DNA of 64,000 nucleotides from a virus (Duplodnaviria > Caudoviricetes): IMG/VR virus record IMGVR_UViG_3300029288_007060, positions 32,001 through 96,000 of that record; one strand, 5' to 3'. Shown in pieces: positions 3,920 to 44,828 of this stretch. The notes below the pieces were generated by a model that was not told the origin of the DNA, did not search any database, and saw only the letters and a program-made list of their open reading frames with translations. The number at the start of each line of letters is the position of its first letter. Within the stretch, counting starts at the first letter, position 1. The translations under genes were made by a program, and so were the position numbers.

Positions 3920-5320
3920 TTACTTTCTCCTCTTGTCTACAATTCGCTTTGTTAATTTTCCCATGGCCGAATTTTTACTAGTAATTTTCTTATACAATGC
4001 ATCAGTAGCACTAGTTGTTTGCGTCTTTCCCATGTCTATATTCATTGAGGTGGCACGACCATCTTCTTTGGTTTTTAATGCCTCCATATGTTTGTCTGAT
4101 TCTTCTTTTAACTCAGATATACGTGCTTCTGGCAGACCCAACCCACTGAAGAAACTATACACTCTCAACACATCATCATTCCCAGAAACCTCGTATACTC
4201 CTCTAAACACTCTAACAGAATCATTACACAATTTACTTATCATACTGAATCCGTATTCAATATTCGTTGCTGGAACCTTTTGTAATACCTTCTTTGTTCC
4301 CGTAACAATAACCCCTGCCGACCGCGTTTGTGATAAGTCAAAATCACCTGATAAGAGACCGCTTTCTAGCGTAGTAATCATTGCTTCCGCTATCGCAGAA
4401 TCTTCCATATAGTTTGTTAGTTCCATCATACCATAAAGAGCACAGTCTCCAGTTCCTATAAATAATTTCGAAAAATCCATAGGATCCAATGAGGTATATT
4501 GTGATGGATTAACGGAAAGTTGATTAAACAAGTGCAGTGGTTCTACTATAGATTTGTTGGCAACCTTCCAAAATTCGCTCATCGAGAGCCCGGAAAACAT
4601 AAGCTCTATCTTGGCGTTATCCACAACAATTAGCGAATTGATAACATCGTTCTTGGCTAATTGCGCCAACTTTGAAAGAGTTTGTATAGCATTATGCTTG
4701 GCTAACGCATCTTCACTGGCCATAGGAAGAACATATAAAACCGAAAGAGGCTTGCCCATTTGAGACATTAAATTTACCATAGTTTCTGCAGAACCACTAC
4801 CGGTGCCACCACCACCGGCAATCGCTAACATCAAGATTGTGCTATCTGAAAAATTATCATTCAGAACGCCTTCTATGGTTTTTGAATATTCTTCCGCTGC
4901 GGCCCTTCCAGTTTCCAAATCTTTCGCCGCGCCACCCAATGCATAATCTAAAAATAATTTTTGTTTTTCCGGTATATTTATACATTTTAAATCCTGCACA
5001 GCTGTATTAACGGCCAAAACATTATATCCTCTAGCATAAAACTCTTCAGCAATCTTGGACCCGCATTGTCCTACGCCAACAACCCCAATATTCACGCTTC
5101 TGTCTGCCTGTTCTACTAATTCAATCATCTCTTCCTCCATCTTGGATTTTTTAACCCTGATTTTCTTCTCCTTAAGTAATTTTTCGAATTCTTCGTTTTT
5201 CTTTGTGATTTCTTCGTTCGTATTTATATTTGTTGCGTCACCATTATTATCTATCACCACAACTTTGTTAGTATTTTCTTCCATATTATTCTCCATTATG
5301 TTTTTTAAAAAATGATTCAA
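3920..5320 (-). CDS. tubulin/FtsZ-family GTPase (PhuZ/TubZ/CetZ-like)
   Basis: GVGQCG, AVNT, GGAAKD, signature GGGTGSG, VVDN, T7-like LDPMDF; true start probably 5284 (MEENTNK). Confidence 0.9.
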   Translation of the reverse strand: MNHFLKNIMENNMEENTNKVVVIDNNGDATNINTNEEITKKNEEFEKLLKEKKIRVKKSKMEEEMIELVEQADRSVNIGVVGVGQCGSKIAEEFYARGYNVLAVNTAVQDLKCINIPEKQKLFLDYALGGAAKDLETGRAAAEEYSKTIEGVLNDNFSDSTILMLAIAGGGGTGSGSAETMVNLMSQMGKPLSVLYVLPMASEDALAKHNAIQTLSKLAQLAKNDVINSLIVVDNAKIELMFSGLSMSEFWKVANKSIVEPLHLFNQLSVNPSQYTSLDPMDFSKLFIGTGDCALYGMMELTNYMEDSAIAEAMITTLESGLLSGDFDLSQTRSAGVIVTGTKKVLQKVPATNIEYGFSMISKLCNDSVRVFRGVYEVSGNDDVLRVYSFFSGLGLPEARISELKEESDKHMEALKTKEDGRATSMNIDMGKTQTTSATDALYKKITSKNSAMGKLTKRIVDKRRK

Positions 5321-6026
5321 ATTTCTCTACATTCATTGATATATCGGATGGCAGTATGACATTTTTTATCTCATTTTTTGACATCGGCTGAACATTTTCG
5401 TTCCTACGCTTTGCCAGCTCAAAAATAGATTTTCGCTTTGTGCCTACATTATACACTCCAAAAGCATCATTTTTTATAAGAAAGCTTATTTTTCTTGCAA
5501 TAATATCAATATAATCTGCCGAAGTATATATATCTGAAAAAGCCTTTTGGTATTGCCAAACAGATGGCTTAAAACTTGTTCTAATAATCAAATCCTTTGT
5601 TCCAATGTATGCTTCCCCAGCAAGTTTCGTAAATGAATAAAAATTAACCGGACATGTAATATCTGTCTCTTTATAATTTCCCGCCTTTCCCTCATAAACG
5701 TAATCTGTGGAAATGTAAGTTATAGACGCACTACAGTCGCACATTTCGCTAATAATATTTTTAGTGCCAATAATATTGGTCTCTATTGCTTGTTTTTTAT
5801 TTATTTCTGCCCCGGCAACATTGGTGTAGGCCGCACAATGTATTATTTTTTGTATATCACGCAACTCATTTGCATGCTTACAACAATACTCAACTATAGA
5901 ATGAGTATCGCTTATATTACACTCAACCCTGCCAGCCATTGGAAAATACTCAATACCGAATTCTTCGCCAACTTTTTGGAGTTCTTTGCCTAAATTTCCA
6001 CTGGCTCCTGTTAACAAACACTTCAT
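5286..6026 (-). CDS. rmlD: dTDP-4-dehydrorhamnose reductase-like SDR
   Basis: LTGASGNLG, HCAAYTNV, YISTDYVY, YSFTKLAGE; ATG at 6026 overlaps the rmlB TGA. Confidence 0.85.
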   Translation of the reverse strand: MKCLLTGASGNLGKELQKVGEEFGIEYFPMAGRVECNISDTHSIVEYCCKHANELRDIQKIIHCAAYTNVAGAEINKKQAIETNIIGTKNIISEMCDCSASITYISTDYVYEGKAGNYKETDITCPVNFYSFTKLAGEAYIGTKDLIIRTSFKPSVWQYQKAFSDIYTSADYIDIIARKISFLIKNDAFGVYNVGTKRKSIFELAKRRNENVQPMSKNEIKNVILPSDISMNVEKFESFFKKHNGE

Positions 6027-6973
6027 TTTTTTATAAACCAACTGCCATTGGAACGATACCACATTATTGTATGAGCGATAGCATCTTCAAAACTATATTG
6101 CGGCTTCCAATCTAAATTTTTTAATTTTGTGCAATCAACCGAATATCTTGTGTCATGTCCTGGCCTATCTTTAACATATTCAATAAAACTTTCGTCGGCG
6201 TTCATTATAGTCAATATAGTCTTCAATACCTCTATGTTTTCTTTTTCTGCCCCCGAGCTAATATTATAGGCCTCCCCGGGTATTCCTTTTTCAATAATAG
6301 ATTGCAACGCCCTAAAATGGTCTTTTACATATATCCACTCTCTTTTATTCTTACCATCTCCATATAGCGGTATTTTTTCCCCTTTCATTATATTTGCGAT
6401 AGCTTTTGGAATGAATTTTTCTATATGTTGCCTTGGGCCATAATTATTACTACACCTTGTGGTTATAACTGGAAGACCATAGGTTGTGAAATATGACTGT
6501 CCTAACAAGTCTGCTGAAGCCTTAGTGCTTGAATAAGGACTTCTTGGCTTTATTTGATCATTTTCTTTGGAATGTCCTGCCTCAACACTTCCATATATCT
6601 CATCAGTACTAATGTTAATAAACTTCTGTGGCGTATGCGCTTTAAGTGCAGCCTCTAACATGCTATGCGTTCCGACAACATTGGTGTTTACAAAGACTTT
6701 TGATCCTAAGATAGAATTATCTACGTGGCTCTCTGCCGCTGCGTGTATAACTATATCTGGCTTTTCTATTTCGAATATTTTTTTAACCAAATCATAGTCA
6801 CACACATCTCCAATGTATAACTTATGTCTCTTAACCTGCGGAACATTCAATAATGACCCCGCATATGTCAATTTGTCGATACTCACTATTTCATCTGTAG
6901 TGTGTTGCAGAAAATACAACACAACATTTGAAAAAATAAATCCGCAAGAGCCGCTTATAAGAATTTTGCTCAT
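6023..6973 (-). CDS. rmlB: dTDP-glucose 4,6-dehydratase
   Basis: DKLTYAG, AAESHVD, ISTDEIYG, SPYSSTKAS, SNNYGPRQ, DRPGHDTRY. Confidence 0.95.
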   Translation of the reverse strand: MSKILISGSCGFIFSNVVLYFLQHTTDEIVSIDKLTYAGSLLNVPQVKRHKLYIGDVCDYDLVKKIFEIEKPDIVIHAAAESHVDNSILGSKVFVNTNVVGTHSMLEAALKAHTPQKFINISTDEIYGSVEAGHSKENDQIKPRSPYSSTKASADLLGQSYFTTYGLPVITTRCSNNYGPRQHIEKFIPKAIANIMKGEKIPLYGDGKNKREWIYVKDHFRALQSIIEKGIPGEAYNISSGAEKENIEVLKTILTIMNADESFIEYVKDRPGHDTRYSVDCTKLKNLDWKPQYSFEDAIAHTIMWYRSNGSWFIKK

Positions 6974-7188
6974 GTCTTATCCCTTATAATGTATTTTTTA
7001 ACCCATTCAAGATATTTGGGCATTTTTAATGGCGGTAACTGCTCTTTTATATTTTCGGGCATATCTGTGCCATTCGCTAAATTTAGCAAATCATTATACT
7101 TATTATAATACACCATTATTTTACGAAGATTGATAAATTTCTTCTCTTTTAATAAAAGGAGGTATAAATATTTGGGCTCTCTACGCAT
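6970..7188 (-). CDS. small hypothetical protein
   Basis: 72 aa ORF translationally coupled on both sides (TAATG, ATGA). Confidence 0.55.
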   Translation of the reverse strand: MRREPKYLYLLLLKEKKFINLRKIMVYYNKYNDLLNLANGTDMPENIKEQLPPLKMPKYLEWVKKYIIRDKT

Positions 7189-8177
7189 TATTTTTCGTCG
7201 AAAATTATCGAAACAAAATTTTCTATTTCATCTTTTGATACTTTGGCAATCTTTGCTCCATGCAGAGCTGCTTCACAATATCTCTGGATAGATGAGCCAC
7301 AATCTGCCCAATATCCCTCTACGCTCTTATTGATAAGAGAATTATTCTTTGCGTAATGGTTGTTAACTGCACTGATTTCCAATTCTCCTCTATCACTGGG
7401 TTTTATTTTATCTATTACACCAAATACATCGTTGGTATAAAGATATAGTCCCACCACGGCCATATCGCCTATGTGTTCTTTTGGTTTTTCTATTACTTCT
7501 GTGACTTTTCCATCTGAACTCATTACTGCTACGCCGTAATCTTCTGGGTTATTTACTTTTTTTGTAAAGATACAGGCTTTATTATCTCCCATATCTAAAC
7601 CCTTATCTATTTGCTCATAATCAAAGATGTTATCTCCGAGTATAGTAACTATTGTATCATCTGGGCGAACAAAATCCTTTGCTAAATATAGAGCCTCAGA
7701 AATTCCCCCACTTCCTTCCTGAATTTTATATGATATATCCAGCCCCCACTCTTTTCCACTACCCAGCATATTGATAATGTCTTTAGCCCCATCTCTATCA
7801 ACTATGGCCAGAACCCTATAAACTCCAAATGCGCGCAATGTTTTTAGTGGATAAAAAATCATTGGGACTATTCCAATCGGCAACTCATGTTTGTTGTGAA
7901 ATTTGGTCAACGGAAACAACCTTGTTGCGCGACCACCACACAACAAAACTCCTGCATTCTTATTGTGTATATTTTTCCTACTAATTTCAGATAATTCTGA
8001 ACAACGTCCACATGTTGTTATCAAATTAGACAAATTCCAGGCCAGGCGGCCCTTTCTTTTTGTTAATTGATGTACAAATAAATTTTGTGATGTTCCACAA
8101 TGCCTACATTTATTAGCGTCGCGCTCAATACATAATTTTTTTGCATCTTGAATATATCCCATTTTATTTCTCCACAA
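7188..8177 (-). CDS. rmlA: glucose-1-phosphate thymidylyltransferase with N-terminal HNH-like Zn domain
   Basis: LCGGRATRLFPLT, NKHELP, LGDNIF, EKPK, PSDRGELEIS; N-terminal RD..CRHC...H...NL...CGRC; probable start 8163. Confidence 0.9.
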   Translation of the reverse strand: MWRNKMGYIQDAKKLCIERDANKCRHCGTSQNLFVHQLTKRKGRLAWNLSNLITTCGRCSELSEISRKNIHNKNAGVLLCGGRATRLFPLTKFHNKHELPIGIVPMIFYPLKTLRAFGVYRVLAIVDRDGAKDIINMLGSGKEWGLDISYKIQEGSGGISEALYLAKDFVRPDDTIVTILGDNIFDYEQIDKGLDMGDNKACIFTKKVNNPEDYGVAVMSSDGKVTEVIEKPKEHIGDMAVVGLYLYTNDVFGVIDKIKPSDRGELEISAVNNHYAKNNSLINKSVEGYWADCGSSIQRYCEAALHGAKIAKVSKDEIENFVSIIFDEK

Positions 8178-8481
8178 TTATTATGTCGTCTTCTATCTTA
8201 GTTCCTACTTCCAATATGGTTACATCACCCTTAAGAGCTGTTAATCTATGCATAATTTTAGGAGCAATGTGATATTTGTCTCCCTCGTTTAGTGTCTTAT
8301 TCTTTCCTTCTACGGATATCATTAAAGTTCCTTGAAGCACAAATATCGTCTGATCCATAATTTTATGATACATGTATGGGGTTTTTTCATTCTCCATTAT
8401 CACTATCATATGTGCAGAATACTTAGACGTGCTGGCCCAGCACAACTCAAATCCGTATGATTTTTTAATATAGTCCGGCAT
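8164..8481 (-). CDS. cupin-domain protein (sugar isomerase-like)
   Basis: YMYH...IFVLQG...EGDKYHIAPKIMHRL. Confidence 0.75.
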   Translation of the reverse strand: MPDYIKKSYGFELCWASTSKYSAHMIVIMENEKTPYMYHKIMDQTIFVLQGTLMISVEGKNKTLNEGDKYHIAPKIMHRLTALKGDVTILEVGTKIEDDIIIVEK

Positions 8482-8490
8482 CTTTATCTC

Positions 8491-9063
8491 CTATATTCCT
8501 TGGCGCAACATGCTGGCCAATATAAAAGCGTGTCCTAAACTTCTTTCAGAACAATTTAACACATCAGAAAATGACATTCCTAATTTTTCATTATCGTAAG
8601 CGTCAAAATCCCACAAGTATATTACGTCTTCTTTATTGTATAACTCTTTTAATTTTTTGTAAGCCATTGAGCACTTAACCGCCTTGAAATACAATGGAAT
8701 ATATATTGTTTTTCGGGCATCAATATATCCTAACTTCTTTCCATCCCATAGAGAATATTCTGGTATTGATCCTTTGCCCATTGGATATCTTATAGCCTTA
8801 GGATTATTCCAACCTTTAATAGCCCAATCCCAATACGATTTTGTTGGCTCACCATTTATATCTGTATGACATTTGTAAACCTTACAATACTGATATGCAT
8901 TCTCTACTGTCTTGGAAACATATCCTTCGTATAATCTGCATGGCCCTAAAAAGAAAGGGCTTAGTCCTTTGCTCCACCCACTTGCTCTAGAAACAACATA
9001 TACAAGAAGAGCATTGTTTGGTAATTTATCTTTATCTTTCGGGCCTATGACTTTGACTTGCAT
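8491..9063 (-). CDS. DUF6939/NADAR-like protein
   Basis: LSPFFLGP, VENAYQYCKV, ARKTIYIPLY, GHAFILA pattern. Confidence 0.5.
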   Translation of the reverse strand: MQVKVIGPKDKDKLPNNALLVYVVSRASGWSKGLSPFFLGPCRLYEGYVSKTVENAYQYCKVYKCHTDINGEPTKSYWDWAIKGWNNPKAIRYPMGKGSIPEYSLWDGKKLGYIDARKTIYIPLYFKAVKCSMAYKKLKELYNKEDVIYLWDFDAYDNEKLGMSFSDVLNCSERSLGHAFILASMLRQGI

Positions 9064-9920
9064 TATTTAATCTTTTTTGATATAACGCCGGGGATTTTTT
9101 CCCAATCTTTTTCTGGACGCCCCTCAAGATTCTGTTTCCATGCCGCTTCAATAATCTTAGGGTCAATTTCGTGCCGTTTACTAAAATCAATTAAGGCATT
9201 GATATCTTTGGGAAAACATGATCCTGATACACAAAAGCCTCCGTCATGTCCTGGGACATCACAGTGGCTGCGCCCAATGCGGCCGTCGGCCAATACCATA
9301 TCTTTTACATCATCGTATTGTATTTCTAATTTTTGACACAATTCATAAATGAAATTAAAATAGTTGACTTTGACCGCAAAAAAACAATTGGCCGCGTATT
9401 TTGTTAATTCTGCGGACTTCCAATCGGTTTTATAAATTGGCATTGAGTTACCAAAACGATGCCTATATAACTCTTCAACCCTATCTACTGGTTCTTTCTC
9501 TCCCCCAAGAATATTACGGGCCGCGCAAATAAAATCCAATTTGTTATTTCTGGCCGTAAGGAATTCGGGATTAGATACAAATTTTAAATTTGGATATTTG
9601 TTTTGAAACATTTCGTTGGTTCCTGGCAACACCGTACTCTTAATTATAGCAATTTTGTTACCTTCCGCTGACACTTTGTCATGCACTTCTTTAACCGCAC
9701 CCTCTAATATTGTTAAATCTTGATTTCCGTCTTCTTCATACATAGGCGTCGGAAGACAAAAAAACAGGTACTCACTGCTATTTATAGTGTCTTCAAGCGT
9801 ATTAAATCCTTTCTTAAATTTATCATAAATCTTAATATTGGCATGCAGCCCAAACCCATGACAAACTGCCGACCCAAGAAAACCAAATCCAATTATACCT
9901 ATATTAAAATCATTTGCCAT
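9063..9920 (-). CDS. ugd: UDP-glucose/GDP-mannose dehydrogenase family protein (short form)
   Basis: IGIIGFGFLG, CLPTP, KSTVLPG, NPEFL, SAELTKY, GSCFPKD. Confidence 0.85.
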   Translation of the reverse strand: MANDFNIGIIGFGFLGSAVCHGFGLHANIKIYDKFKKGFNTLEDTINSSEYLFFCLPTPMYEEDGNQDLTILEGAVKEVHDKVSAEGNKIAIIKSTVLPGTNEMFQNKYPNLKFVSNPEFLTARNNKLDFICAARNILGGEKEPVDRVEELYRHRFGNSMPIYKTDWKSAELTKYAANCFFAVKVNYFNFIYELCQKLEIQYDDVKDMVLADGRIGRSHCDVPGHDGGFCVSGSCFPKDINALIDFSKRHEIDPKIIEAAWKQNLEGRPEKDWEKIPGVISKKIK

Positions 9921-9929
9921 TTGTGCTCC

Positions 9930-10883
9930 CTATTTACACCCAGTTTCCCACCATTTATAAGTTTTTGCCATTCCTTCGGAAAACTTAACTGTTGGGTTGT
10001 ATCCCAAAATATTCTGTGCCTTAGATATATCTGCTAAGGACTTTAAAGGATCTCCCTATCTTCTTGGAGCATCCACTCTGTTTAATTGCTTTCCCGATAA
10101 CTTACAAACCTCATCATATGTATCCATCACAGAGTAGCACTCACCGCATGCTATATTAAAACACTCTCCGCCCAAAAAAGATTCGTGCTTGGCCGCAAGT
10201 ATATTGGCCTGGACAACATTATCAACATAACAAAAATCTCTTTCTGCTTTGCCCTCGCCATCTATTCTGCACACCCCATTGTTAACTGCAGCCTCTAAAA
10301 AGGCCGGAATAACTGTAGCATATGCTGATCCTGCTCTCTGGTTTACCCCAAACACGTTGAAGTAACGAAGACAAACAGTATCCAACCCGTGTATTTCGCC
10401 GTATACCCTACAATAATACTCTCCAGCGGCCTTGTGAACCGCGTAGGGCGATTTTGGACTCAGGTGTGCAGTTTCTTTGGTTGGAAACTCGGCAACGCCA
10501 CCATAGACCGATGAGGACGAACTAAATATTACTTTTTTAACGTGTGCTAGTCTGGCCGATTCAAGAACATTTAATAGGCCCGTAATATTGTTTTTATTAG
10601 TTTCTAACGGAAAATCTATAGAATATTGGACTCTTGGCAGAGCAGCTAAAAGAAATACAATATCGCCATCTTTAAATTCGGTATAAAGGTCTATGATATT
10701 TATATCCTTGCGTATAAATTCAAAATCCCCTTTTAACCCATCAAATCTGCTATTTTTAACATTTCCATAAAATCCTGTCGCCATATTGTCTATGCCAACT
10801 ACATCATAGCCTTGTTTTACTAGCTCGTATGTAATGTTAGAGCCTATAAAACCTGCGGCGCCGAGAACTATCATTCTAGACAT
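9930..10883 (-). CDS. NAD-dependent nucleotide-sugar epimerase (WbpP/GalE-like) interrupted by an in-frame TAG at 10056-10058
   Basis: GAAGFIG, SSSSVYG, YAVHK, LRYFNVFG, RDFCYV; after the TAG the frame continues GDPLKSLADISKAQNILGYNPTVKFSEGMAKTYKWW to a stop at 9930. Confidence 0.85.
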
Positions 10884-11143
10884 TATTTAAGCACCTCTAT
10901 AGTATCTTTTATATCTTTTTCACTAACCAGCCCTACCAAACGATTCACTTCTAATCCATCTTTAATAAAAACCAAAGTAGGTATAGACATTATTTTAAAT
11001 TGGGTCGCTAGAGCTGGATTTTCGTCTACGTCTACTTCTTCGAAATCCGCATCTTTAATTTCAGATTTAATTTTGGTATAAATTGGTGCTAGACGCTTAC
11101 AAGGCCCGCACCAAACGGCGGTGAATTTAAGAACTTTCAACAT
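10883..11143 (-). CDS. trxA: thioredoxin
   Basis: WCGPC active site, IMSIPTL. Confidence 0.95.
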   Translation of the reverse strand: MLKVLKFTAVWCGPCKRLAPIYTKIKSEIKDADFEEVDVDENPALATQFKIMSIPTLVFIKDGLEVNRLVGLVSEKDIKDTIEVLK

Positions 11144-11160
11144 TATATTCTCCTTTTTTT

Positions 11161-11748
11161 TTATTTAATAGCCTTTATGCAATATACAAATCTGTCTTCT
11201 TCGCCAGACCCACCAAACCCCTTTATATTGGAACTGGAGAACTGTTTTGTGAGTAGTTGCCACCCATCTCTGGTAATTCTCCAATAGTCTTTAACTGGAT
11301 TTTGTCTTTTGGGCAGGCCGGTGCCGTCACCAAAAAACCTATAGTTGTAGGGTGCATCTATCAATAAAATTCCGCCCGGTTTTAAAATCCTATACATTTC
11401 GTCCATGGCTTTAAATGGATTCTCATAACATTCTATGGCCTGATTATTTATAATGCAGTCCCATTTATCATTCCAGTCTTTCGGCATAGCGTGGACATCT
11501 CCAAAAATATTAACTTTATTTTTAGAATCTCCGTAGAGTGGCTTATCAAACGTTATATATGATTTAATCTTAGATTTGTTTAATAGACTGTATGGAACGT
11601 CCCACCCTCCAGCAGATATATTTATTATATCTCCACTGACTTTTGGAATTTCTTGTTCTAGCCACTGAATAAGATAGAATCTAGTTTCACTATACAGTTT
11701 ACCAGCATATTCTTTGTTTTTCTTTTTTGGAAACCCGTCCATAGCCAC
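11161..11748 (-). CDS. class I SAM-dependent methyltransferase
   Basis: EMYRILKPGGILLIDAP, DYWR motifs. Confidence 0.75.
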   Translation of the reverse strand: MAMDGFPKKKNKEYAGKLYSETRFYLIQWLEQEIPKVSGDIINISAGGWDVPYSLLNKSKIKSYITFDKPLYGDSKNKVNIFGDVHAMPKDWNDKWDCIINNQAIECYENPFKAMDEMYRILKPGGILLIDAPYNYRFFGDGTGLPKRQNPVKDYWRITRDGWQLLTKQFSSSNIKGFGGSGEEDRFVYCIKAIK

Positions 11749-11753
11749 TCTCC

Positions 11754-14415: not shown

Positions 14416-14444
14416 AGCTGTCTCCTCACTGTATATGATACACT
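14413..14444 (-). promoter_or_regulatory. conserved promoter-RBS element AGTGTA-N10-TGAGGAGACA-N3-ATG, copy 2
   Basis: same words and spacing as at 2065-2096. Confidence 0.55.
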
Positions 14445-14456
14445 GAATATAAGGAA

Positions 14457-28840: not shown

Positions 28841-28846
28841 CGCTTA

Positions 28847-36060: not shown

Positions 36061-36061
36061 T

Positions 36062-36403: not shown

Positions 36404-37399
36404 TTATAAGCCCATCGCTTTCAAATATCTATTTATCATCTTGTCTAATGTTAGCTCTTTAACTGCGTATCCTCTTGCTTGCTGTTTGAACTCTGCCAAA
36501 TTAGGAATCACGCTCTCTATACCATCTGCTAACTTTTTTATATATGCGCTACCATAATTCCAATGACCACCACTGTCTACAATTATACCCTGTTTCCTAT
36601 CAGAAATCAATTCTGAGTTGCCACCCCACAAGGGAATTATAACAGGTATTCCAGAACTAATTGATTCTATTACGGAATTATCGCAACTTGACCCCATACG
36701 AGGATACAAACCTATATCTGCATTTTCAAAATATTTAGAAATTTTTGAATTGGGGATAGAGCCGTGATAGATGATATTTTTATCCAACTTGTATTTGTTG
36801 TATATATGTTGACATTGAGAATCCATTACCCCGACCATTATCAATTTAACCTTATGATTGCGAGACTTTAACTCTTCATATGCTCCTATTAAACTTTCCA
36901 TTATATAATCATTTCTCATAACACCATGAGAAAAAATATTAACAAATCCATCAAATTTTCTTTGTTTTGGACAAAATGTATTGATGTCTGCTCCATTATG
37001 TATAATTGAAAAATTTTCTTTTCTCTCCGCTATTTCAGAATCGATCAGTCGTTTAGAAAATTCTGATTGGTATATCATATGGTCTACATTTGCTACGTCT
37101 CTTTTAATGGCATTATGAAGCGCGTCCATATCCGACCTACGCTCTCTTCCGGGTCCGCCGTGCCAATATTCTCTAAAATAAGCCCCGTCTAATCTAACAT
37201 ATATTTTCGTTTTCTTTCTATCCACCTGTCTTAGGGCCTTTCCACTTTCAATTATACAAAGACATTTGTCTGCCCTGTGAGGCTTATCATATGATATAGA
37301 GTGTCCCTTTTTGGCAAACCCATTAGCCAAACGATATGCGCTCACGGTAGGGCCACCAGAGGTGGCAGAACCACGCAAATTAAAATAAATCATGGCCAT
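36404..37399 (-). CDS. GT4 glycosyltransferase
   Basis: GGP, YQSEFS, IHNGAD, SCDNSVIESISSGIPVI, GGNSEL. Confidence 0.88.
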   Translation of the reverse strand: MAMIYFNLRGSATSGGPTVSAYRLANGFAKKGHSISYDKPHRADKCLCIIESGKALRQVDRKKTKIYVRLDGAYFREYWHGGPGRERRSDMDALHNAIKRDVANVDHMIYQSEFSKRLIDSEIAERKENFSIIHNGADINTFCPKQRKFDGFVNIFSHGVMRNDYIMESLIGAYEELKSRNHKVKLIMVGVMDSQCQHIYNKYKLDKNIIYHGSIPNSKISKYFENADIGLYPRMGSSCDNSVIESISSGIPVIIPLWGGNSELISDRKQGIIVDSGGHWNYGSAYIKKLADGIESVIPNLAEFKQQARGYAVKELTLDKMINRYLKAMGL

Positions 37400-38112
37400 T
37401 AAAATAACTTCCTATCGCTAATAACCACCAATCCTTCGTCCTTTTCTTTTCTGCCATTATCAAATAAGTGTCCACGCATTTCTATAAGCAAAGAGTTGTA
37501 TTTTTTGTCGTTTAATAGATTATCAACAATCTTTTTAACAGAAAATTTGTTCAAACAATAATCGTCGAAGATAAAAACGGCCCCTTCCTTTGATACCTTT
37601 TGTGCCAACCTAATATCTTCGGATATGACCGATTCTTTATCATGTTCCCCGTCGATAAAGCATAAATCGAATTTGTTTGAAAAATTTGATATAGTTTTGG
37701 AAAAGTGCTTTCTCTCCAAGAACTTAATCTTTTTCTTTTCTTCTCCGCCAATTTTTTCATATAGTTCTTTGTTAGAAACTGTTGCCGCACGGTGTCCCAC
37801 AGAGGTTGACTGTTTTTGAGAAAACCCAACTATATCTATGGTAACAATTTCTTTGATGTTGCTATTTAAGGCAACGGAATAACTGGCCGTTCCTCTTCCG
37901 GTTCCCATTTCAAAAAAATTATCGGATTTGAAGAACTCAGAAATTGCTTTTATAACAAACGGTTGTTCCATGCCATATAAAAGAGAAAATTTGGTGATAT
38001 TATTATCGACGCGAGTCTTTGTCAAATAACATATTTTTTCTATTTTATCTTTATCCTTTGTCCAATCATAGCCTATTTTCTCAAAAAAATCAACAAGCGC
38101 TATAGTCTCCAT
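37399..38112 (-). CDS. class I SAM methyltransferase (Methyltransf_24-like)
   Basis: EMGTGRGTAS, FDLCFIDGEH, IFDDY. Confidence 0.8.
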   Translation of the reverse strand: METIALVDFFEKIGYDWTKDKDKIEKICYLTKTRVDNNITKFSLLYGMEQPFVIKAISEFFKSDNFFEMGTGRGTASYSVALNSNIKEIVTIDIVGFSQKQSTSVGHRAATVSNKELYEKIGGEEKKKIKFLERKHFSKTISNFSNKFDLCFIDGEHDKESVISEDIRLAQKVSKEGAVFIFDDYCLNKFSVKKIVDNLLNDKKYNSLLIEMRGHLFDNGRKEKDEGLVVISDRKLF

Positions 38113-38880
38113 TTATATTAATCCTTCTTTTGTAAATATTTCTTTAAATTCTTTTTGCATGTCCTGCCAATCCTTAGTCTGCTGGGGACTATGTTGCCTT
38201 TCGACTTGTTGGTCGTGCTGCCTCCAAAGATACAACACTTTATCTATTTTGACAACCGGATGCCTCATTAGCATTCTGCCGGCTATATTATAATCTGTGG
38301 CATATTGATATTGTGTATTAAAACCGCCAATATCTCTCAAGCATGGTATATTGAAACATCTCATGTGGCCAATGGGGTTTTGAGATATAAATATTTTTCT
38401 AAGTTGTTTTTGGCCCTCGACAGTAAATTGGTTCTGCACAAGTTTGGCTTTAGCGTGATTCTTGACAACAACCCTGTTCTTTTTATCGATTATAGAAAAC
38501 CCCGAATAAGTCTGCCCTACTTCTGGGTGAGTATTAAACATATTGTCTGCCTCAGAAAGCGCATTCGGGGCAAGCATATCATCGGAATCTAAAACACAAA
38601 ACAAACCGGCATCCTTATAGTTATTTGGTAGCCACTCATTCAAAACGAAATTATACGCCTTTTGTTGTCCTATGTTTTCGTTCATTTTAATAAAAAACAT
38701 ATTAGTGCATTTTTTCTTAAAGGCGTCACAAACCAAATCAGCCCCGTCACTTGATTTGTTGTCTATCACCAAGTGCACCCACTTGTCCTTTGGCAATGAT
38801 TGATTAATAGCGGATTGTAATGATAAACCAACCAAATGTTTTCTATTATGCACAAGCGTAACCAATATTATTTTAGGCAT
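38113..38880 (-). CDS. GT2 glycosyltransferase
   Basis: VIDNKSSDG, LDSDD, IGGF, ATDY, LYLWRQH. Confidence 0.88.
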   Translation of the reverse strand: MPKIILVTLVHNRKHLVGLSLQSAINQSLPKDKWVHLVIDNKSSDGADLVCDAFKKKCTNMFFIKMNENIGQQKAYNFVLNEWLPNNYKDAGLFCVLDSDDMLAPNALSEADNMFNTHPEVGQTYSGFSIIDKKNRVVVKNHAKAKLVQNQFTVEGQKQLRKIFISQNPIGHMRCFNIPCLRDIGGFNTQYQYATDYNIAGRMLMRHPVVKIDKVLYLWRQHDQQVERQHSPQQTKDWQDMQKEFKEIFTKEGLI

Positions 38881-39674
38881 TATTTTCTGTCCTTTAATAT
38901 CAAATCGTTTGTGAATATTTTTTGGTCACAAGGCTCAAAATTAGGATCAAACGTCACAAAGACATTTCCCGTATTTCTCATGTTTGTTAGATATCTTGAT
39001 AATGCAGATAGTTGCGATGAGCCTTTTTGATGCGCTTTATTTTTTTCTTTTCTATATGCTTTATCCTTATCTGTATCAAGGTGAATGCCCTTTGGAAGTA
39101 TGTATGCGCTAATCAGCCCCAAATATGACAGCCTGTAATACATACAAGCATCCTCGTGCCCATATGTTGAAAAATAATTATAGAACCCTACCTTCTCAAA
39201 AACTCTTCTTGGTAAACATAGACAGGCTCCACCCAAATTGCCGTTTTTCGGCCTACACCTCACTCCATTTATTATTTTGTCCGAGTATTTATCTGGCTCT
39301 ACACAAACGCCCGTTATTCCTAATTTTGGAATTTTATCGCAGGCCTCTGCAAATAATTTATCATATGAGTCGGGAACAATTATATCGTCGTCAATTGTCA
39401 TAAGATAATCTCCTGATGCTTTGACTAGTCCACTATTTCGTCCCCCAGCAACGCCCAAATTCTTGTAATTAAATACATGCTGAATCTTTGTGGTGTTTTC
39501 ATTCCCCTTAACCTCAAGTAAATAATCCCTTAACCCTGGCTCAGATGAATTATTGTCCACCAAAATCAGCTCGTGTTTTAGTGTAGTTTTTTTAATTAAA
39601 TTTTCTATTGTTTGAATAGAATAATGCTTTCTGTTCCAGTTAAGGATAATAATGCTAAGTAGTTTTTCACTCAT
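38880..39674 (-). CDS. GT2 glycosyltransferase
   Basis: SIIILNWN, LVDNNS, NLGVAGGRN, IDDD, YGHED. Confidence 0.9.
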   Translation of the reverse strand: MSEKLLSIIILNWNRKHYSIQTIENLIKKTTLKHELILVDNNSSEPGLRDYLLEVKGNENTTKIQHVFNYKNLGVAGGRNSGLVKASGDYLMTIDDDIIVPDSYDKLFAEACDKIPKLGITGVCVEPDKYSDKIINGVRCRPKNGNLGGACLCLPRRVFEKVGFYNYFSTYGHEDACMYYRLSYLGLISAYILPKGIHLDTDKDKAYRKEKNKAHQKGSSQLSALSRYLTNMRNTGNVFVTFDPNFEPCDQKIFTNDLILKDRK

Positions 39675-39677: not shown

Positions 39678-41732
39678 TTATCTCCCGTCTTCCTTAAATT
39701 TTATAAATGTCCTCGCTTTTCCGTGGTCTATAATAGATGTTGGAGTCCTTATCAATTTAAATTTATTTTGCCATTTTTTTGATAGCGCGTTTAATAACCT
39801 CATAAATTCATCTTTTCCAGAAAATAGACTTCCAGAGGATTCGTGCACGAGAGGGCATAATATTCCATAATTAAGCATTCCTTTGTCTAATGCAGAAAGA
39901 GCAATGTCTGCTCCATAAAAATGAAACCCGTCAAAGGTTTTCTCATCAAATTTTAATCCACTATTTTTTCTTATAACCATACAATGTTCGTCTAATGTTT
40001 GGGACAGATAGACTTTGGCAGATTTTGTAGACTGCCATTGTATTTTTCCTTTCATGTTATGAACTACACCAATCGTGTCATCATTTTGGTTAATTCCCGC
40101 AGTACCCAGAACACCCCATTTTTTATTAGTTTTCTCTATCTCTGATATTCTATCAAACAACATATCTATCCACTTTTCGTAAAAAAGAACGTCTTGGTGA
40201 CACAAGACTACCACATTTCCTCTTGCTTTTGATATTCCTATATTTAATGCTTGAGACGCAGAATATTGATTATTCATATTATAAATTGGAACTATCTCGT
40301 ATTTTTTATTTGTTATATTCTTATATAAGGAGTGTATTACGTATTCATTATATTGCTCTATATTATTCACACAAGTAACAAAGGAAATGTCTGTTTGATA
40401 AATATCTTTGTTTATATTTTTTTTGAATTCTGTGAAATCGGTGTCCACGCGATGCATCCATCGGGTTTTGAATATCTTAATTCCATTTTGTTGTAAGGTT
40501 CCCGATGTTTTAAATTTATTTTGTGATACGCTTTCTGAATGAATCACTACGGCATTCGCAGCATAAAGTATCTTTTTCCCCAATTCGTGTACAACTTTAA
40601 GACATAAATCTACATCTTCGTAACAAAAATAATAGGCTTCGTCGAAACCCCCAACCTTATAAAAATCTTCTTTGTTTATTAGAAGACAAGCCCCGGTAAC
40701 CGCCTGAAAAAATCTATCGTGATTCGCAAACCCTTCCGGAAAATACTTTAAAACCGATTTTCCTAAATTGGCTGGCCCATCTGGTATAAAAACTATACCG
40801 GCATGCTGAACAGCATCTTTGCAATATTCAAGTCTGGCTCCCACAATTCCTATTTTTTTATTATTCTTTATATTTGACATCATCTCGGTCATCCAAAATG
40901 GCTGTGGTTCGGTATCGTCGTTTAAAAACAAAAGAAATTCTCCGGAAGACAAATCTGCTAACTCGTTATTAATCGATGAAAATGACCCCTCAGAAGTCCC
41001 TCTGCTTATTATTTTAATTCTACTGTCGTTAAGTTGTTTTATATACTCCGCCGTCTCATCCGAAGACGAACTATCTCCTATTACCCATTCCCAATTTGGA
41101 TAATGCGTATTTTTTATAATAGCAAGATGGCATTTTTTAAGAACCTCTAAATTATCTCTCGTTGGTGTTATAATACTAACCATCGATACGTCTTCTGGTT
41201 TCTTAATTAAGACTTTGTCTGCGAATTCATTATGCCTGCGCTTTTTAATCCTCTTGAATTGAACCTTAACTCCGTCTTTATCAAAAATGATAGATTGCGG
41301 CGCAAACTTTCTGGCGGGAGCAGTATTCTCAGCTTTTTCTATCGAAACAATTTTTATAGACTTTACAAAAATACACCCAGTTGAGTTATCTGGACGACAA
41401 ATTCTAATATACATAGGGGTTGTGTTTGACACATCTGGCGTACATAATGTAACAGCATACTCTCTTATATCTGACGAGCTTATTATAAGAGGTATTTGAT
41501 TTCCGTCATAATTTTTCCCAGAATAGAAATTAACTGTAATGTTTCCATTACCCGCCATTCTTGAAGCATTTATTATTATTTTATATCTAGTTTTGGGACT
41601 TAATAGGCATTGAGACATTATAATCGAGTCTTTTCTTGGCATAGAGACGCATAACCCTCCATGCTTTATGAGTGTGCGTATAGACCTTCCCCTCCAACTA
41701 TACTTATCTCCGCCGATTGTTATAACACTCAT
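39678..41732 (-). CDS. multidomain glycosyltransferase: beta-sandwich + GT2 + second GT2-like domain
   Basis: VSIITPT, FLNDD, AVTGACL, YEDVDLC; second domain LCHQDV, FDGFHFYGAD. Confidence 0.85.
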   Translation of the reverse strand: MSVITIGGDKYSWRGRSIRTLIKHGGLCVSMPRKDSIIMSQCLLSPKTRYKIIINASRMAGNGNITVNFYSGKNYDGNQIPLIISSSDIREYAVTLCTPDVSNTTPMYIRICRPDNSTGCIFVKSIKIVSIEKAENTAPARKFAPQSIIFDKDGVKVQFKRIKKRRHNEFADKVLIKKPEDVSMVSIITPTRDNLEVLKKCHLAIIKNTHYPNWEWVIGDSSSSDETAEYIKQLNDSRIKIISRGTSEGSFSSINNELADLSSGEFLLFLNDDTEPQPFWMTEMMSNIKNNKKIGIVGARLEYCKDAVQHAGIVFIPDGPANLGKSVLKYFPEGFANHDRFFQAVTGACLLINKEDFYKVGGFDEAYYFCYEDVDLCLKVVHELGKKILYAANAVVIHSESVSQNKFKTSGTLQQNGIKIFKTRWMHRVDTDFTEFKKNINKDIYQTDISFVTCVNNIEQYNEYVIHSLYKNITNKKYEIVPIYNMNNQYSASQALNIGISKARGNVVVLCHQDVLFYEKWIDMLFDRISEIEKTNKKWGVLGTAGINQNDDTIGVVHNMKGKIQWQSTKSAKVYLSQTLDEHCMVIRKNSGLKFDEKTFDGFHFYGADIALSALDKGMLNYGILCPLVHESSGSLFSGKDEFMRLLNALSKKWQNKFKLIRTPTSIIDHGKARTFIKFKEDGR

Positions 41733-41736: not shown

Positions 41737-42567
41737 TCATCCTTTATATTTATAAATCATGTGATTCGGATTATTTTGATAAAACTCCAAATCATTAAAA
41801 TATTTTCCTGACCAAATGTTTTTAAACAAATTTATATTTTCGCTAAACTTAGGGTTGTTTTTCCCATCTTTTGATATGCCTTCATCATGAATCAATATAG
41901 AATCTGGACAATAGACACAATTTTTCTTCAACATTGATTTCATCTTTAAGCACAAATCAATGTCCTCATATTGATAAAAATAATCTTCACAAAAACGCCC
42001 CACGTCCTCAAAATCTTTTCTCCTTAGCAGCATGCATGCCCCTGTTACCGCCTGGTAATATCTTGGAACAGAAATAAAGGGCTTGACACTATCGTAAGGT
42101 TGCCTGTAACACATATGGTATGGGAGATTATTTGTTTTGTGGCTAAAAAACACACCGCAATGCTGTATCTTTTTATCGGGATACAATAGTAATGACCCAA
42201 CAATGCCAGCATTAGTATCTGTGTCTAGTATTGTCTGCATATTGTAGAGCCAGTTGTCGTTAACTGGTATAGTATCGTCATTAAGAAACATTATATAGTC
42301 TCCGGAGCCCAATAGAGATGCTTCGTTATTATTCGAAGCAAACGATCCGTCATTTTTCTCCTTAGATGTAACCTCTATTCTGTCTGTAAAAAGTATATCG
42401 TCGATATACATAGAGTCATATATTACGTTGTTTACCTCTTCGTTGGGGTCGTTGGCCAATAAGTAGATGTGATAATCTACTCTCTTCGTTTTTTCTATTA
42501 TTGAAGAAAGACATAATTTTAGTTTGTCGCAATTTCTGTATGTTGTGATAACAATATCTATCGACAT
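41737..42567 (-). CDS. GT2 glycosyltransferase
   Basis: FLNDD, IQHCG, QAVTGACML, YEDIDLC. Confidence 0.9.
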   Translation of the reverse strand: MSIDIVITTYRNCDKLKLCLSSIIEKTKRVDYHIYLLANDPNEEVNNVIYDSMYIDDILFTDRIEVTSKEKNDGSFASNNNEASLLGSGDYIMFLNDDTIPVNDNWLYNMQTILDTDTNAGIVGSLLLYPDKKIQHCGVFFSHKTNNLPYHMCYRQPYDSVKPFISVPRYYQAVTGACMLLRRKDFEDVGRFCEDYFYQYEDIDLCLKMKSMLKKNCVYCPDSILIHDEGISKDGKNNPKFSENINLFKNIWSGKYFNDLEFYQNNPNHMIYKYKG

Positions 42568-42869
42568 CGGCTTCTCTTATAATAATATCTGTAATAATCG
42601 TTTAAGTTACTTCCAGGAAGAAATTGTTTAATTTCATATTGTCTAGACAACAAATCCAACACTATATGCCCAGAGTCTATGAGGACACAGAGCAATGTAT
42701 TTATACAATATTCAATGGCACAAATTGTGTCTTGCGCTATACGCTCGCCGACAAATCTATCTTGAACCTTTTCCAATACAAACAACTGAATGAGTTCGGT
42801 GGCAGGAATCGATATACTAATCGCATTAGTTGTGTCACTTCTTTTAACTATAATATCTTTAATCATCAT
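42558..42869 (-). CDS. hypothetical protein
   Basis: 103 aa ORF filling the gap between GT genes. Confidence 0.45.
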   Translation of the reverse strand: MMIKDIIVKRSDTTNAISISIPATELIQLFVLEKVQDRFVGERIAQDTICAIEYCINTLLCVLIDSGHIVLDLLSRQYEIKQFLPGSNLNDYYRYYYKRSRCR

Positions 42870-42877: not shown

Positions 42878-43612
42878 CTACGCAATCTTAGGGAGAGAAT
42901 ATGGCTGTATGTGTTTTATTATCTCGCCATACTTCTTACGATTTTTGTTATATTGTTTTGGTATATCTATTCTTGATTCAGAAAATGTTGTGTGATTAAA
43001 ATGTGCTATACCGAGATTTGGAGAGACGCCCATTTTAAATCTTCCGTCTTCTTGCACAATCTTACAAAATAATGCGTCTTCAAAAAACCCAGACCCAAAC
43101 TCTGTGGGAAATAGACCGACAAATTCATACACTCGCCTTTTAGATAACAGACACCAAGCCTCTAGGTATTGAAATCTAAAACGTCCATACTTATTTTTGT
43201 TATTATTAGGAACATATTCATTATTGCTGTCTAACTCTCCTGCTTTCGGGGACGTTAAATCCCAATTGTTTGTTTTTAAGCTTTCGGTTAAGTTTATTAG
43301 CCACTTTCTGTCCAATATCTTAACATCATTGTTTAGTAGCAAAACCAATTCTTTGCTTGACTTAATAATCCCAGCATTAATAGCTCCGGCAAATCCGATA
43401 TTTTTATCATTATCTAGCCATTTTATGCTTTTGTACTTGTTTTTCAGAATTGAAACCATATTATCGTTTGGGGACCCGTCATTCACAACTATTATTTCTG
43501 TATTGTTATCTATTCCGTCTGTCCCTATAATTAAATCATCAAGACAGTTTTTCGTCATCGCCAACAATTTGGCACTGGTTATATAAATCGGTATAATTAT
43601 AGATATATCCAT
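42878..43612 (-). CDS. GT2 glycosyltransferase
   Basis: ISIIIPIY, VNDGSP, NIGFAGAIN, LLNND, FFED. Confidence 0.9.
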   Translation of the reverse strand: MDISIIIPIYITSAKLLAMTKNCLDDLIIGTDGIDNNTEIIVVNDGSPNDNMVSILKNKYKSIKWLDNDKNIGFAGAINAGIIKSSKELVLLLNNDVKILDRKWLINLTESLKTNNWDLTSPKAGELDSNNEYVPNNNKNKYGRFRFQYLEAWCLLSKRRVYEFVGLFPTEFGSGFFEDALFCKIVQEDGRFKMGVSPNLGIAHFNHTTFSESRIDIPKQYNKNRKKYGEIIKHIQPYSLPKIA

Positions 43613-43613
43613 A

Positions 43614-44828
43614 TTATATCATTCCTTTATAGGTGCCAAGAACGTAAGGGTTTTCTTTTCCTTCGATTACATTGATTATTTTCTTAGCTGCATTCTTCCA
43701 ACTAAATTCGTCTACCATTTTGTCCATTTCCGGTTTGAGTTTTTCTAATATCTCATCGTATTTTTTAAATGACTTCTGCATTAGTTCAGACGTATGATTG
43801 ATATCGGGCTCACCAGATTTATTTCTTTCATCATAGTGCCAATATTGCTCGTTTAACTCGGCCTTTACTAATTTGGTATCAATCAACAGGGAATTCTTTT
43901 CATTCATAAATTGCAAATTACCAGAGTAATTCGGGGCTATATTAATCATTCCTCTTCCAGTTGCCCCTCCGCTTGCCATTGCCTCGATCATTGGTATACC
44001 CCAGCATTCGCTTGCTGTAGTGGTAACATGAGTATGACAAGAATTATATAGAGCGCCCATATTGTCTATTCTCTTATCTATTATTTCGATTTCTGGAATA
44101 TTTTTCCCGTATTTTTTAACCAAATCAATAAAAATATCTCCTAAAATTACTTCAAAAATTTTTCTTCCGCCTGTATTTTTAGAAGCATCCCACATACCAT
44201 CTGAATGTTTGTATATTTTACTTTTGAGCACCAAACACACATCATCATTTTTTGTGAATGTTTGACAATATGCATTTAATAGTATATGGAGTTTTTTTCT
44301 ATAATGCGGCGCGCATACAGATAAAAATCTATAAGATTTGTTAGTTTTTAATCTTATCGGAGAAATGGAAGGATTGAATTTTTCTACATCTACCCCATGA
44401 GGAATAACAAATATTTTTTCCAATGGAACGCCATTATTATAGAAAATTTCGGCTGCGAAATCTGATGGAGGAAAAAACAAATCAACATACTTGTAGAACT
44501 TCTTCCAATGTGCCGGCCACCATTTATACTCGTATGCATAAATTGCGCCTTTTAATTTAGAATTAGAAAGAAATCTGGATGGTAAATTTTGAGGGACAGT
44601 ATAACAAAAATCTAAATCTAATTTCCTCTTCCCCGGGCCGAACTCCTGTAAGGCTAAAACAGAATCTATCATCTTATTTTTCTTTTTGAATAGGTTCTCA
44701 TTTATACCATTAGTTGACACTACATATGTATTATGTCCCAACTCGTCGAAAGCATTGAACAATTCTGTCATAACAGACGACCACGATAAGTTGTCTGCCC
44801 ACCAAGTGTTTGATCTTATATTAAGCAT
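43614..44828 (-). CDS. GT4 glycosyltransferase
   Basis: PSDF, VIPHGVD, RKK, SECWGIPMIEAMASG, FSW. Confidence 0.88.
   Translation of the reverse strand: MLNIRSNTWWADNLSWSSVMTELFNAFDELGHNTYVVSTNGINENLFKKKNKMIDSVLALQEFGPGKRKLDLDFCYTVPQNLPSRFLSNSKLKGAIYAYEYKWWPAHWKKFYKYVDLFFPPSDFAAEIFYNNGVPLEKIFVIPHGVDVEKFNPSISPIRLKTNKSYRFLSVCAPHYRKKLHILLNAYCQTFTKNDDVCLVLKSKIYKHSDGMWDASKNTGGRKIFEVILGDIFIDLVKKYGKNIPEIEIIDKRIDNMGALYNSCHTHVTTTASECWGIPMIEAMASGGATGRGMINIAPNYSGNLQFMNEKNSLLIDTKLVKAELNEQYWHYDERNKSGEPDINHTSELMQKSFKKYDEILEKLKPEMDKMVDEFSWKNAAKKIINVIEGKENPYVLGTYKGMI

Follow-up and report, generated by a model that had tools for sequence, protein, structure and literature searches.

The nearest functional analogues of the gene block described here are the Maf flagellin islands of bacteria, virion glycosylation in mycobacteriophages and the autonomous glycosylation clusters of giant viruses. 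The block, hereafter the island, occupies positions 5286-44828 of a 64,000-nucleotide window, the whole stretch of DNA analyzed, which corresponds to bases 32001-96000 of a 158,007-bp contig (G000; IMG/VR virus record IMGVR_UViG_3300029288_007060) from an uncultured huge phage, a relative of Bacillus phage G. Mycobacteriophages of the Che8 and Corndog type reportedly have few transferases and do not synthesize sugar nucleotides; experiments by Freeman et al. in 2023 are said to have demonstrated that their virions are glycosylated. The island resembles these systems, in which decoration of a phage's own structural proteins by soluble, phage-encoded glycosyltransferases is proposed (as summarized in PMC12619734), and differs in its extent of 40-56 kb, in having precursor routes of its own and in being known from genes alone. 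In the Maf flagellin islands of Campylobacter, Aeromonas, Clostridium and Geobacillus, as here, a nonulosonate synthase, a cytidine monophosphate (CMP)-activating enzyme, PseB-like and PseH-like proteins, an acetamidino amidotransferase, methyltransferases and a DUF115/MptE-like transferase are clustered, and soluble enzymes act in the cytoplasm; canonical Mafs O-glycosylate flagellin there before export (PMC4065374). The phage island differs in having no flagellin match (none to Pfam among window open reading frames (ORFs) of at least 80 amino acids (aa), and none to PHROGs in a further dozen or so large ORFs of the contig), in that its Maf-type transferase is a 263-aa core, and in carrying around 16 further transferases and three other sugar routes. 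The fibril clusters of Megavirinae and the chloroviruses also place rare bacterial-type sugar routes beside transferases and vary in content between clades, and their glycans are placed on virion surface structures (PMC10117803, PMC8456856, PMC9614988), as would be the case in the phage. Giant viruses, in contrast, have eukaryotic hosts and unrelated virions, whereas the present island belongs to a tailed phage and features prominent nonulosonate, Maf-core and acetamidino chemistry.

The island is real, viral, conserved and unusually large, and we place it with virus-encoded autonomous glycosylation. It takes up a quarter of the 158-kb fragment and encodes around 45 soluble enzymes which make and join activated sugars, one of them resembling sialic acid. 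Its 47 ORFs of 80 aa or more form an unbroken block, all of it on the minus strand, and most overlap or sit a few bases apart, in agreement with the co-oriented block described in the original prediction. All sizeable ORFs of the window are read from this strand, as are 144 of the 154 ORFs on the whole contig. Domain calls were made with Pfam, which covered each window ORF of at least 80 aa, and NCBIfam, and these scans reproduced the predicted tally of about seven GT2, four GT4, five other GT-B and one Maf-like transferase, together with four methyltransferases, a deacetylase (DUF2334) and routes through deoxythymidine diphosphate (dTDP), guanosine diphosphate (GDP), uridine diphosphate (UDP) and CMP. 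With genes named by their window start, GT2 domains above the Pfam cut-off were found in 16397, 38113, 38880, 39678 (two domains), 41737 and 42878, with a weak match in 34953, giving six clear genes with seven domains. GT4-type proteins were clear at 13558, 36404 and 43614 and weak at 14457; the other GT-B proteins are 15261, 22055, 23240, 24334 and 32889, and the methyltransferases 11161, 20631, 27902 and 37399. The dTDP route comprises RmlA-like, RmlB, cupin and RmlD-like proteins, the GDP route a GDP-mannose dehydratase, the UDP route a PseB-like protein, a short Ugd-like dehydrogenase and a TviC/GalE-like epimerase, and the CMP route NeuB and CTP_transf_3 proteins. A thymidine kinase, a thioredoxin and a metallophosphoesterase are interspersed among these genes.

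With respect to viral context, the major head protein of the contig matched phrog_2522 (E 2e-76) and was 53% identical to the head protein of Bacillus phage G, and a tail sheath and a head-protease domain were also present. No match to Terminase_6C was obtained on the fragments, so the viral assignment rests on head, sheath and baseplate genes; of the hallmarks by which the viral context was to be confirmed, the head protein was thus found, with sheath and baseplate, and the terminase was not detected. The flanks are those that had been claimed. Upstream (44905-57950, minus strand) lie 917-aa and 2175-aa proteins, which are putative fibre or outer baseplate components, a Baseplate_J protein (78 bits) and a sheath initiator (Sheath_initiator, 22.6 bits), and downstream (91-5320, minus strand), on the replication side, lie a tubulin/FtsZ-like protein, a ResIII/UvsW-like helicase and an IstB-like ATPase. 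Strand bias and G+C content (GC) are uniform along the contig. The IMG/VR class of the record is provirus, yet both contig ends consist of phage genes, and the class given to the collinear relatives is linear. The provirus boundary caller may have been misled by the bacterial look of the island. No integrase was found on the three fragments (this contig and the relatives G001 and G002). CheckV estimated completeness at approximately 39%, so absences reported for the contig cover about that share of the genome.

The two relatives, G001 (206 kb) and G002 (103 kb), are IMG/VR contigs from other samples which were found with alignment-based scans; neither the Maf-like protein nor the 917-aa protein gave a match when used as a single query against IMG/VR. 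Both are collinear with this phage through the tail and baseplate genes, the 2175-aa and 917-aa proteins and a GT4-like gene, after which the island begins, and the order of the upstream flank is the same in each. At the other end of the G001 island RmlD is followed by a tubulin-like gene, as here, and the order of the downstream flank is also retained in G001. The synteny survey proposed in the original prediction placed the island at the same position after the fibre genes in two related phages; the G001 island measures approximately 56 kb and that of G002 exceeds 55 kb. The head protein of G001 is 88% identical, and 34 of the 47 island ORFs have homologues there with a median identity of 51%, compared with 47% for tail and fibre genes and 53.5% for replication genes. 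Because island identity is comparable to that of these core genes, the island is judged to have been present in the ancestor of the clade and to be constrained to the same degree. By Pfam, the make-up of the G001 island matches that of the present one, with seven GT2, four GT1-type, two TagF-like and two CTP_transf_3 proteins, a DegT protein and NeuB, of which three copies were counted in G001. Phage G has no such island behind its baseplate genes. Neighbourhoods of close metagenomic homologues of the Maf-like protein (L007/L010, L008 and L009) contained NeuB, CTP_transf_3, GNAT, class III aminotransferase, methyltransferase and GT2 genes, with variable extras such as formyltransferases and radical-SAM enzymes. 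Among 50,697 GenBank phage records, tblastn with the Maf-like protein and with WbuX gave no match and NeuB matched only three, and nothing in the literature searched described a comparable nonulosonate or virion-glycosylation island in a phage.

The claim that the enzymes are soluble was borne out by a 19-residue Kyte-Doolittle scan, in which no island protein had two or more hydrophobic segments; single segments coincided with Rossmann or GT core strands. Nor did any protein of the G001 and G002 islands have two or more, the three islands amounting to approximately 150 kb. Priming phosphoglycosyl transferases (PF02397, PF00953) were absent from G000, G001, G002 and a further phage, G004. In the DNA in hand, of this phage and of the related contigs, the predicted lack of a Wzx, Wzy or ABC-type polytopic protein and of a priming transferase thus holds. 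O-antigen and capsule loci resemble the island in bringing together Rml, Gmd, Ugd, GT2, GT4 and WbuX/HisH/HisF, and differ in the Wzx/Wzy or ABC transporter and phosphoglycosyl transferase which the phage island lacks; since it has neither exporter nor priming enzyme, it is by definition not such a locus. Elsewhere in the window, the sole protein with several hydrophobic segments (four, at residues 88-168) is encoded at 59285-61171 on the minus strand. This protein contains a Big_1/invasin Ig-like domain, matches a tape-measure PHROG weakly and has conserved counterparts in both G001 and G002.

The candidate nonulosonate transferase (21264-22055, minus strand) is a 263-aa protein consisting of a Maf core only, and matched Pfam MptE-like PF01973 at 34.6 bits. 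Its AlphaFold2 model (pLDDT 92.6) had as its top Foldseek match the Magnetospirillum Maf glycosyltransferase 5MU5 (E 3e-7, TM-score 0.56), followed by archaeal MptE and animal sialyltransferases. A family profile run against 1.84 billion representatives gave 261 matches, the strongest 44 of which were mostly 230-280 aa in length, and reached canonical Mafs of 650-670 aa (Maf_flag10_N plus MptE-like) at E values of 1e-10 to 1e-6. Approximately 25 close metagenomic homologues are all roughly 260 aa. On the strength of the fold match to 5MU5 and the profile link to full-length Mafs, the protein is assigned as a remote, core-only Maf relative. Beside it lie three tandem GT-B paralogues (22055-25431, minus strand) with sub-threshold similarity to the BFO_1060 family, which transfers a Pse/Leg derivative in the O-glycan of Tannerella forsythia (PMC5420450); the family model NF046086, with its cut-off of 200 bits, gave scores of 49 and 28 in this trio, the matching members being 23240 and 24334 and 22055 being their paralogue. 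A fourth GT-B protein of 361 aa (15261-16346, minus strand) matched NF046086 at 44 bits and Epimerase_2 at 23.7 bits, under the cut-off. The model of one paralogue was a generic GT-B fold resembling TagF, epimerases and CMP-binding capsule polymerases, which is compatible with an enzyme using a CMP- or cytidine diphosphate (CDP)-linked donor without being proof of one; because the fold is generic, a nonulosonate-transferase role for these proteins stays tentative. The T. forsythia enzyme Tanf_01245/BFO_1060 is likewise a soluble GT-B protein beside a CMP-nonulosonate locus (PMC5420450), to which four phage paralogues have sub-threshold matches. The phage proteins are shorter (approximately 365 versus 445 aa), score only 28-49 bits against the cut-off of 200, and the T. 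forsythia glycan is part of a membrane-linked general O-glycosylation system.

The structural proteins of the phage were found to be rich in the tripeptide DGY, with 37 copies observed in the structural block against 4.6 expected (approximately 8-fold). Eleven copies fall in a 1805-aa protein and eight in a 1599-aa protein, and the giant proteins of the upstream flank carry DGY/DAYG motifs. The island contained one copy against 2.3 expected and the replication region four against 2.1. Permuted tripeptides were mostly near expectation, although YDG (15) and the related DAY (14) were enriched approximately threefold. Residues flanking the DGY copies are not conserved, and the enrichment is therefore not an artefact of a repeated domain. 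Comparable excesses were observed in G001 (97 versus 7.5 expected) and G002 (22 versus 2.7), while the tail locus of phage G, where there is no island, had two copies against 2.6 expected. Bases 1-18000 of G001 (L014) alone held 60 copies against 2.5 expected, implying a further giant DGY-rich protein in G001 outside the region collinear with this contig. Two other phages, G003 and G004, were rejected as an independent comparison of DGY and island, as both are unrelated and have no Maf-core gene.

The genes assigned to the nonulosonate route all lie on the minus strand. A 248-aa NeuB-family nonulosonate synthase (17084-17830) matched PF03102 at 121.5 bits and scored 125 bits against the equivalog cut-off of 400 for NeuB and 75 against 340 for PseI; this contig has one NeuB copy, G001 three and G002 four. 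A PseH-like GNAT N-acetyltransferase (19934-20497) matched Acetyltransf_3 at 61 bits and PseH at 62.6 against a cut-off of 93. The PseB-like UDP-N-acetylglucosamine 4,6-dehydratase (31619-32779; Polysacc_synt_2, 271.8 bits) scored 320 bits against the 407.75 of TIGR03589 (PseB). It is fused to a MerR-type helix-turn-helix (MerR, 46.5 bits; residues 6-48), which places a DNA-binding domain on a sugar-nucleotide enzyme; the fusion is conserved in G001, G002 and L010 as well, four related phage contigs in all. Next come a CMP-sugar synthetase-like protein (30865-31629; CTP_transf_3, 41.2 bits, with weak KdsB-type matches), which like NeuB scores above its Pfam cut-off and below the equivalog cut-offs, a small cytidylyl- or adenylyl-transferase like TagD or RfaE domain II (30416-30868; CTP_transf_like, 44.7 bits, with TIGR00125 above its cut-off) and a class III (HemL-like) aminotransferase (29139-30422; Aminotran_3, 137 bits), which is 49-55% identical in the relatives. 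Downstream of the MerR-PseB gene, G001, G002 and L010 have a DegT aminotransferase, a short-chain dehydrogenase/reductase and a 280-aa gene which are missing here, and tblastn with the DegT protein of L010 found no PseC (DegT-type) aminotransferase on the 158-kb contig. Either the HemL-like aminotransferase substitutes for PseC, or the host supplies this step, or the route is degraded. Given the lack of a DegT/PseC-type aminotransferase and of the dehydrogenase, and a single NeuB where relatives have three or four, the term self-sufficient used in the original prediction was an overstatement.

An acetamidino cassette (25440-27905, minus strand) comprises a WbuX N-acetyl-sugar amidotransferase (342.6 bits against a cut-off of 203) and HisH-like and HisF-like proteins, called from GATase and His_biosynth matches. 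WbuX is approximately 70% identical to bacterial proteins spread over many phyla, the cassette sits at the GC maximum of the window (0.40-0.41 versus approximately 0.35) and it is not found in G001 or G002; for these reasons it looks like a recent gain from bacteria. An attempt to infer the host from WbuX failed, as matches at this level of identity were scattered across many phyla.

We interpret the island as the vertically inherited, phage-owned glycan factory of a small huge-phage clade allied to phage G. Its most likely acceptors would be the outer proteins of the phage particle, a reading to which we give about half of our belief. It is suggested by the position of the island, by the solubility of its enzymes and lack of lipid-carrier machinery, by the Maf-type enzyme and by the DGY enrichment. 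A carrier-free cytoplasmic assembly line for glycans is well supported by the gene content; the order of its steps, the identity of each sugar and any role in shielding or adhesion are put forward conditionally. In the cytoplasm of the infected cell, soluble enzymes would make a dTDP-6-deoxyhexose, a GDP-4-keto-6-deoxymannose derivative, sugars of UDP-hexuronate type and of UDP-6-deoxy-N-acetylhexosamine type, and a CMP-activated nonulosonic acid which in this phage could carry an acetamidino group. Approximately 17 soluble transferases would then build the glycan stepwise and directly on its acceptor, with no lipid carrier, flippase or polymerase, the nonulosonate being added by the Maf-core enzyme and the four BFO_1060-like GT-B paralogues and the product tailored by methyltransferases, the acetyltransferase and the deacetylase-like enzyme. 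Fibres, baseplate and sheath would be modified before or during assembly. A more specific version, which we think rather unlikely to hold in full, is an undescribed form of cytoplasmic protein glycosylation in which a short, exposed D-G-Y or D-A-Y-G acceptor, possibly at the tyrosine, on fibre, baseplate, sheath and neck would receive a complex, methylated, nonulosonate-capped glycan from some 17 soluble phage transferases. Relatives would exchange chemistry, with the acetamidino cassette and GDP-mannose dehydratase in this phage and additional NeuB, DegT, formyltransferase and radical-SAM genes in others, and a variable sugar coat would result.

Several observations weigh against virion proteins as the acceptor. 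All three DGY-rich genomes belong to one clade, so that the association of DGY with the island is confounded by phylogeny and is not independent evidence, and the unrelated phage G004, which has NeuB and a small glycan cluster, shows no DGY enrichment. The Maf-core protein lacks the N- and C-terminal Maf domains and gave no match to PF20157 (Maf_flag10_N), its score lies exactly at the Pfam gathering cut-off, and its sequence profile searched against the PDB was not significant (5MU5, E 0.89). By the canonical scheme the nonulosonate route is incomplete, with no PseC/LegC-type aminotransferase and no clear PseG, and PseB, PseH and NeuB each score under their own equivalog cut-off. The usual substrates of GT2, GT4 and TagF-like enzymes are lipid-linked or wall polymers, for which the host could supply priming and export. 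Finally, with about 39% of the genome in hand, exporters or DNA-modification genes may be encoded in the remaining 60% or so.

In a second reading, possible though in our view doubtful, the soluble phage enzymes would feed or extend lipid- or wall-linked polymers of the host (the O-unit of lipopolysaccharide, capsule, teichoic acid, S-layer or flagellin glycan) through host priming and export. Blocking superinfection, or keeping progeny from adhering to debris, are examples of what this could serve. The GT2, GT4 and TagF-like GT-B folds and the TagD-like cytidylyltransferase are typical of wall-polymer synthesis, and a host making the same sugar could supply the missing PseC-type step, yet the islands of three phages contain not one membrane component in approximately 150 kb and the Maf-type enzyme points to a protein acceptor. 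The glycosyltransferase sets of cyanophages have been read as host-surface modification (PMC12801897), and S-SCSM2R, with 13 glycosyltransferases, and P-SSM2 do resemble the present phage in carrying many such enzymes with epimerases or dehydratases in a large myovirus, their function being unproven. Those sets are scattered, lack a nonulosonate or Maf module and are read as modifying either host surface or DNA. Against the host-envelope reading, the island holds a conserved position behind the fibre genes and equals the core genes in conservation, and, with no integrase on the three fragments, nothing points to long-term lysogenic conversion.

Hypermodification of DNA, in which sugars would be placed on hydroxylated or hydroxymethylated phage bases to evade restriction, we regard as very improbable. 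Phage glycosyltransferases can build multi-sugar glycans on DNA (Pyle et al. 2024, as cited in PMC12619734; PMC13326640), a thymidine kinase is located inside the island and some 60% of the genome is unseen. Reviewed routes of DNA glycosylation enter, however, through the thymidylate-synthase family, which yields 5-hydroxymethylcytosine, 5-hydroxymethyluracil and 5-hydroxycytosine (PMC13326640), and the homologue PF00303 was absent from G000-G004, all of which except G003 are incomplete fragments. In scale, too, the island is unlike the DNA systems in the cited papers, as it has around 17 transferases, O-methyltransferases, a Maf-type enzyme and a route to a nonulosonate. The half of the genome in which it lies is the structural one, not the one devoted to nucleotide metabolism. 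What belief remains among possible targets falls to mixed or other uses. That a bacterial polysaccharide locus was wrongly joined to phage sequence is scarcely credible: the provirus class of the record and the close bacterial homologues of many island proteins, such as WbuX at approximately 70% identity, would fit a chimera, but synteny contradicts it, since two independent contigs, each from another sample, have this island flanked by these same phage genes. In addition, strand bias and GC do not vary along the contig, both contig ends carry phage genes and there is no integrase.

The remaining features of the island, which all lie on the minus strand, are given here in the direction of transcription. 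Its first gene encodes a GT4-like GT-B glycosyltransferase of 404 aa (43614-44828; Glyco_transf_4, 32.6 bits); in G001 and G002 its counterpart, at 53-54% identity, likewise comes first behind the fibre gene. GT2 glycosyltransferases of 244 aa (42878-43612; PF00535, 55.9 bits) and 276 aa (41737-42567; PF00535, 39.3 bits) follow, separated by a 103-aa ORF without assigned function (42558-42869) for which neither a Pfam family nor a homologue in G001 or G002 was found. The next protein, of 684 aa, has two GT2 domains (39678-41732; PF00535, 89.6 bits in two stretches, plus Glyco_tranf_2_5) behind an N-terminal region of approximately 185 aa without assigned domain, and is 57% identical in G001. 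Two further GT2 glycosyltransferases of 264 aa (38880-39674; PF00535, 65.9 bits) and 255 aa (38113-38880; PF00535, 43.3 bits) precede an S-adenosylmethionine (SAM) methyltransferase (37399-38112; Methyltransf_24, 40.8 bits), a GT4 glycosyltransferase of 331 aa (36404-37399; Glycos_transf_1, 53.1 bits), two small ORFs of 133 and 110 aa (35659-36394) with only a sub-threshold PTH2 match and no conservation in relatives, and a weak GT2-like protein of 237 aa (34953-35666; PF00535, 16.8 bits, under the cut-off) which is 45% identical in G001 and G002. The thymidine kinase (175 aa; PF00265, 138.5 bits) and a 155-aa ORF without assigned function occupy 33965-34956. A GT-B-fold protein of 359 aa from a mainly viral family (32889-33968) had no Pfam or NCBIfam match and was recognized by Atlas structure search, its neighbours being TagF, LpxB and PseG-like proteins at TM-scores of 0.64-0.75; it is 40-47% identical in G001 and G002.

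Beyond the MerR-PseB group, SAM methyltransferases are encoded at 27902-28840 (Methyltransf_23, 83.3 bits) and 20631-21251 (Methyltransf_25, 37.9 bits). A 385-aa LAGLIDADG intein with weak LAGLIDADG_3 and Hom_end matches (residues 181-565; approximately 18238-19392 of the window) divides the GDP-mannose 4,6-dehydratase (17815-19932), so that the GDP_Man_Dehyd match of 386.8 bits falls in two stretches. The intein is inserted in the conserved NHE|SPRRG active-site stretch, with junctions NHE|C...VGN|SPRRG, so that it begins with Cys, ends with Gly-Asn and is followed by Ser at +1; the extein is 320 aa. This intein-bearing gene is not present in G001 or G002. Then follow a GT2 glycosyltransferase of 218 aa (16397-17053; PF00535, 102 bits), a weak GT4-like protein of 256 aa and a GT4 glycosyltransferase of 285 aa (14457 and 13558, together 13558-15227; Glyco_trans_1_4, 23.4 bits, under the cut-off, and Glycos_transf_1, 44.6 bits, respectively), and the DUF2334 polysaccharide-deacetylase-like protein (12888-13571; 54.4 bits). 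The segment 10883-12891 encodes a 170-aa ORF without assigned function, a metallophosphoesterase (Metallophos, 41 bits), a SAM methyltransferase (Methyltransf_11, 31 bits) and a thioredoxin (Thioredoxin, 81.6 bits).

A TviC/GalE-like NAD epimerase and the short Ugd-like dehydrogenase, called from Pfam and NCBIfam matches, lie at 9063-10883. The dehydrogenase (9063-9920) is a 285-aa protein with an intact GxGxxG motif and without the C-terminal UDP-binding domain; the same short form was found in G001 and in the unrelated phage G004, and it is therefore not a pseudogene. The island closes with the dTDP-sugar block (5286-9063; Pfam and NCBIfam), consisting of DUF6939, a 105-aa cupin, RmlA-like, a 72-aa ORF, RmlB and RmlD-like proteins. 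RmlB scored 407 bits, above its cut-off of 365, while RmlA (169 versus 320) and RmlD (111 versus 224) fell below theirs, and the position of RmlC is occupied by the generic cupin. This block is kept in G001.

The longest non-coding stretch of the island is a 299-bp gap at 28841-29138, overlapped only by a 97-aa plus-strand ORF and without an Rfam match; an Rfam scan of the window as a whole gave no match either, and no tRNA genes were found on the contig parts outside the window, which were the parts scanned. Promoter and terminator scans performed no better than on shuffled sequence and thus say nothing on operon structure. Directly downstream of the island (3920-5320, minus strand) is the tubulin/FtsZ-family GTPase, a 466-aa protein (PF00091, 59.8 bits) which is 65% identical in G001 and may be a PhuZ/TubZ-like phage cytoskeletal protein.

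The island offers soluble enzymes that need no lipid carrier, cut-down Maf-type transferases among them, as candidates for protein glyco-engineering. If the glycan is indeed carried on the particle, tailed phages would join giant viruses as possible bearers of a glycosylation machinery that is both complete and diversifying, and phage surfaces could bear sialic-acid-like sugars. This would bear on the way in which metabolic islands of host-like appearance lead virus-detection tools to mislabel phage DNA, the present record being classed as a provirus, on the adhesion of huge phages to surfaces and mucus, on their escape from trapping in debris and on their recognition by hosts and immune systems.

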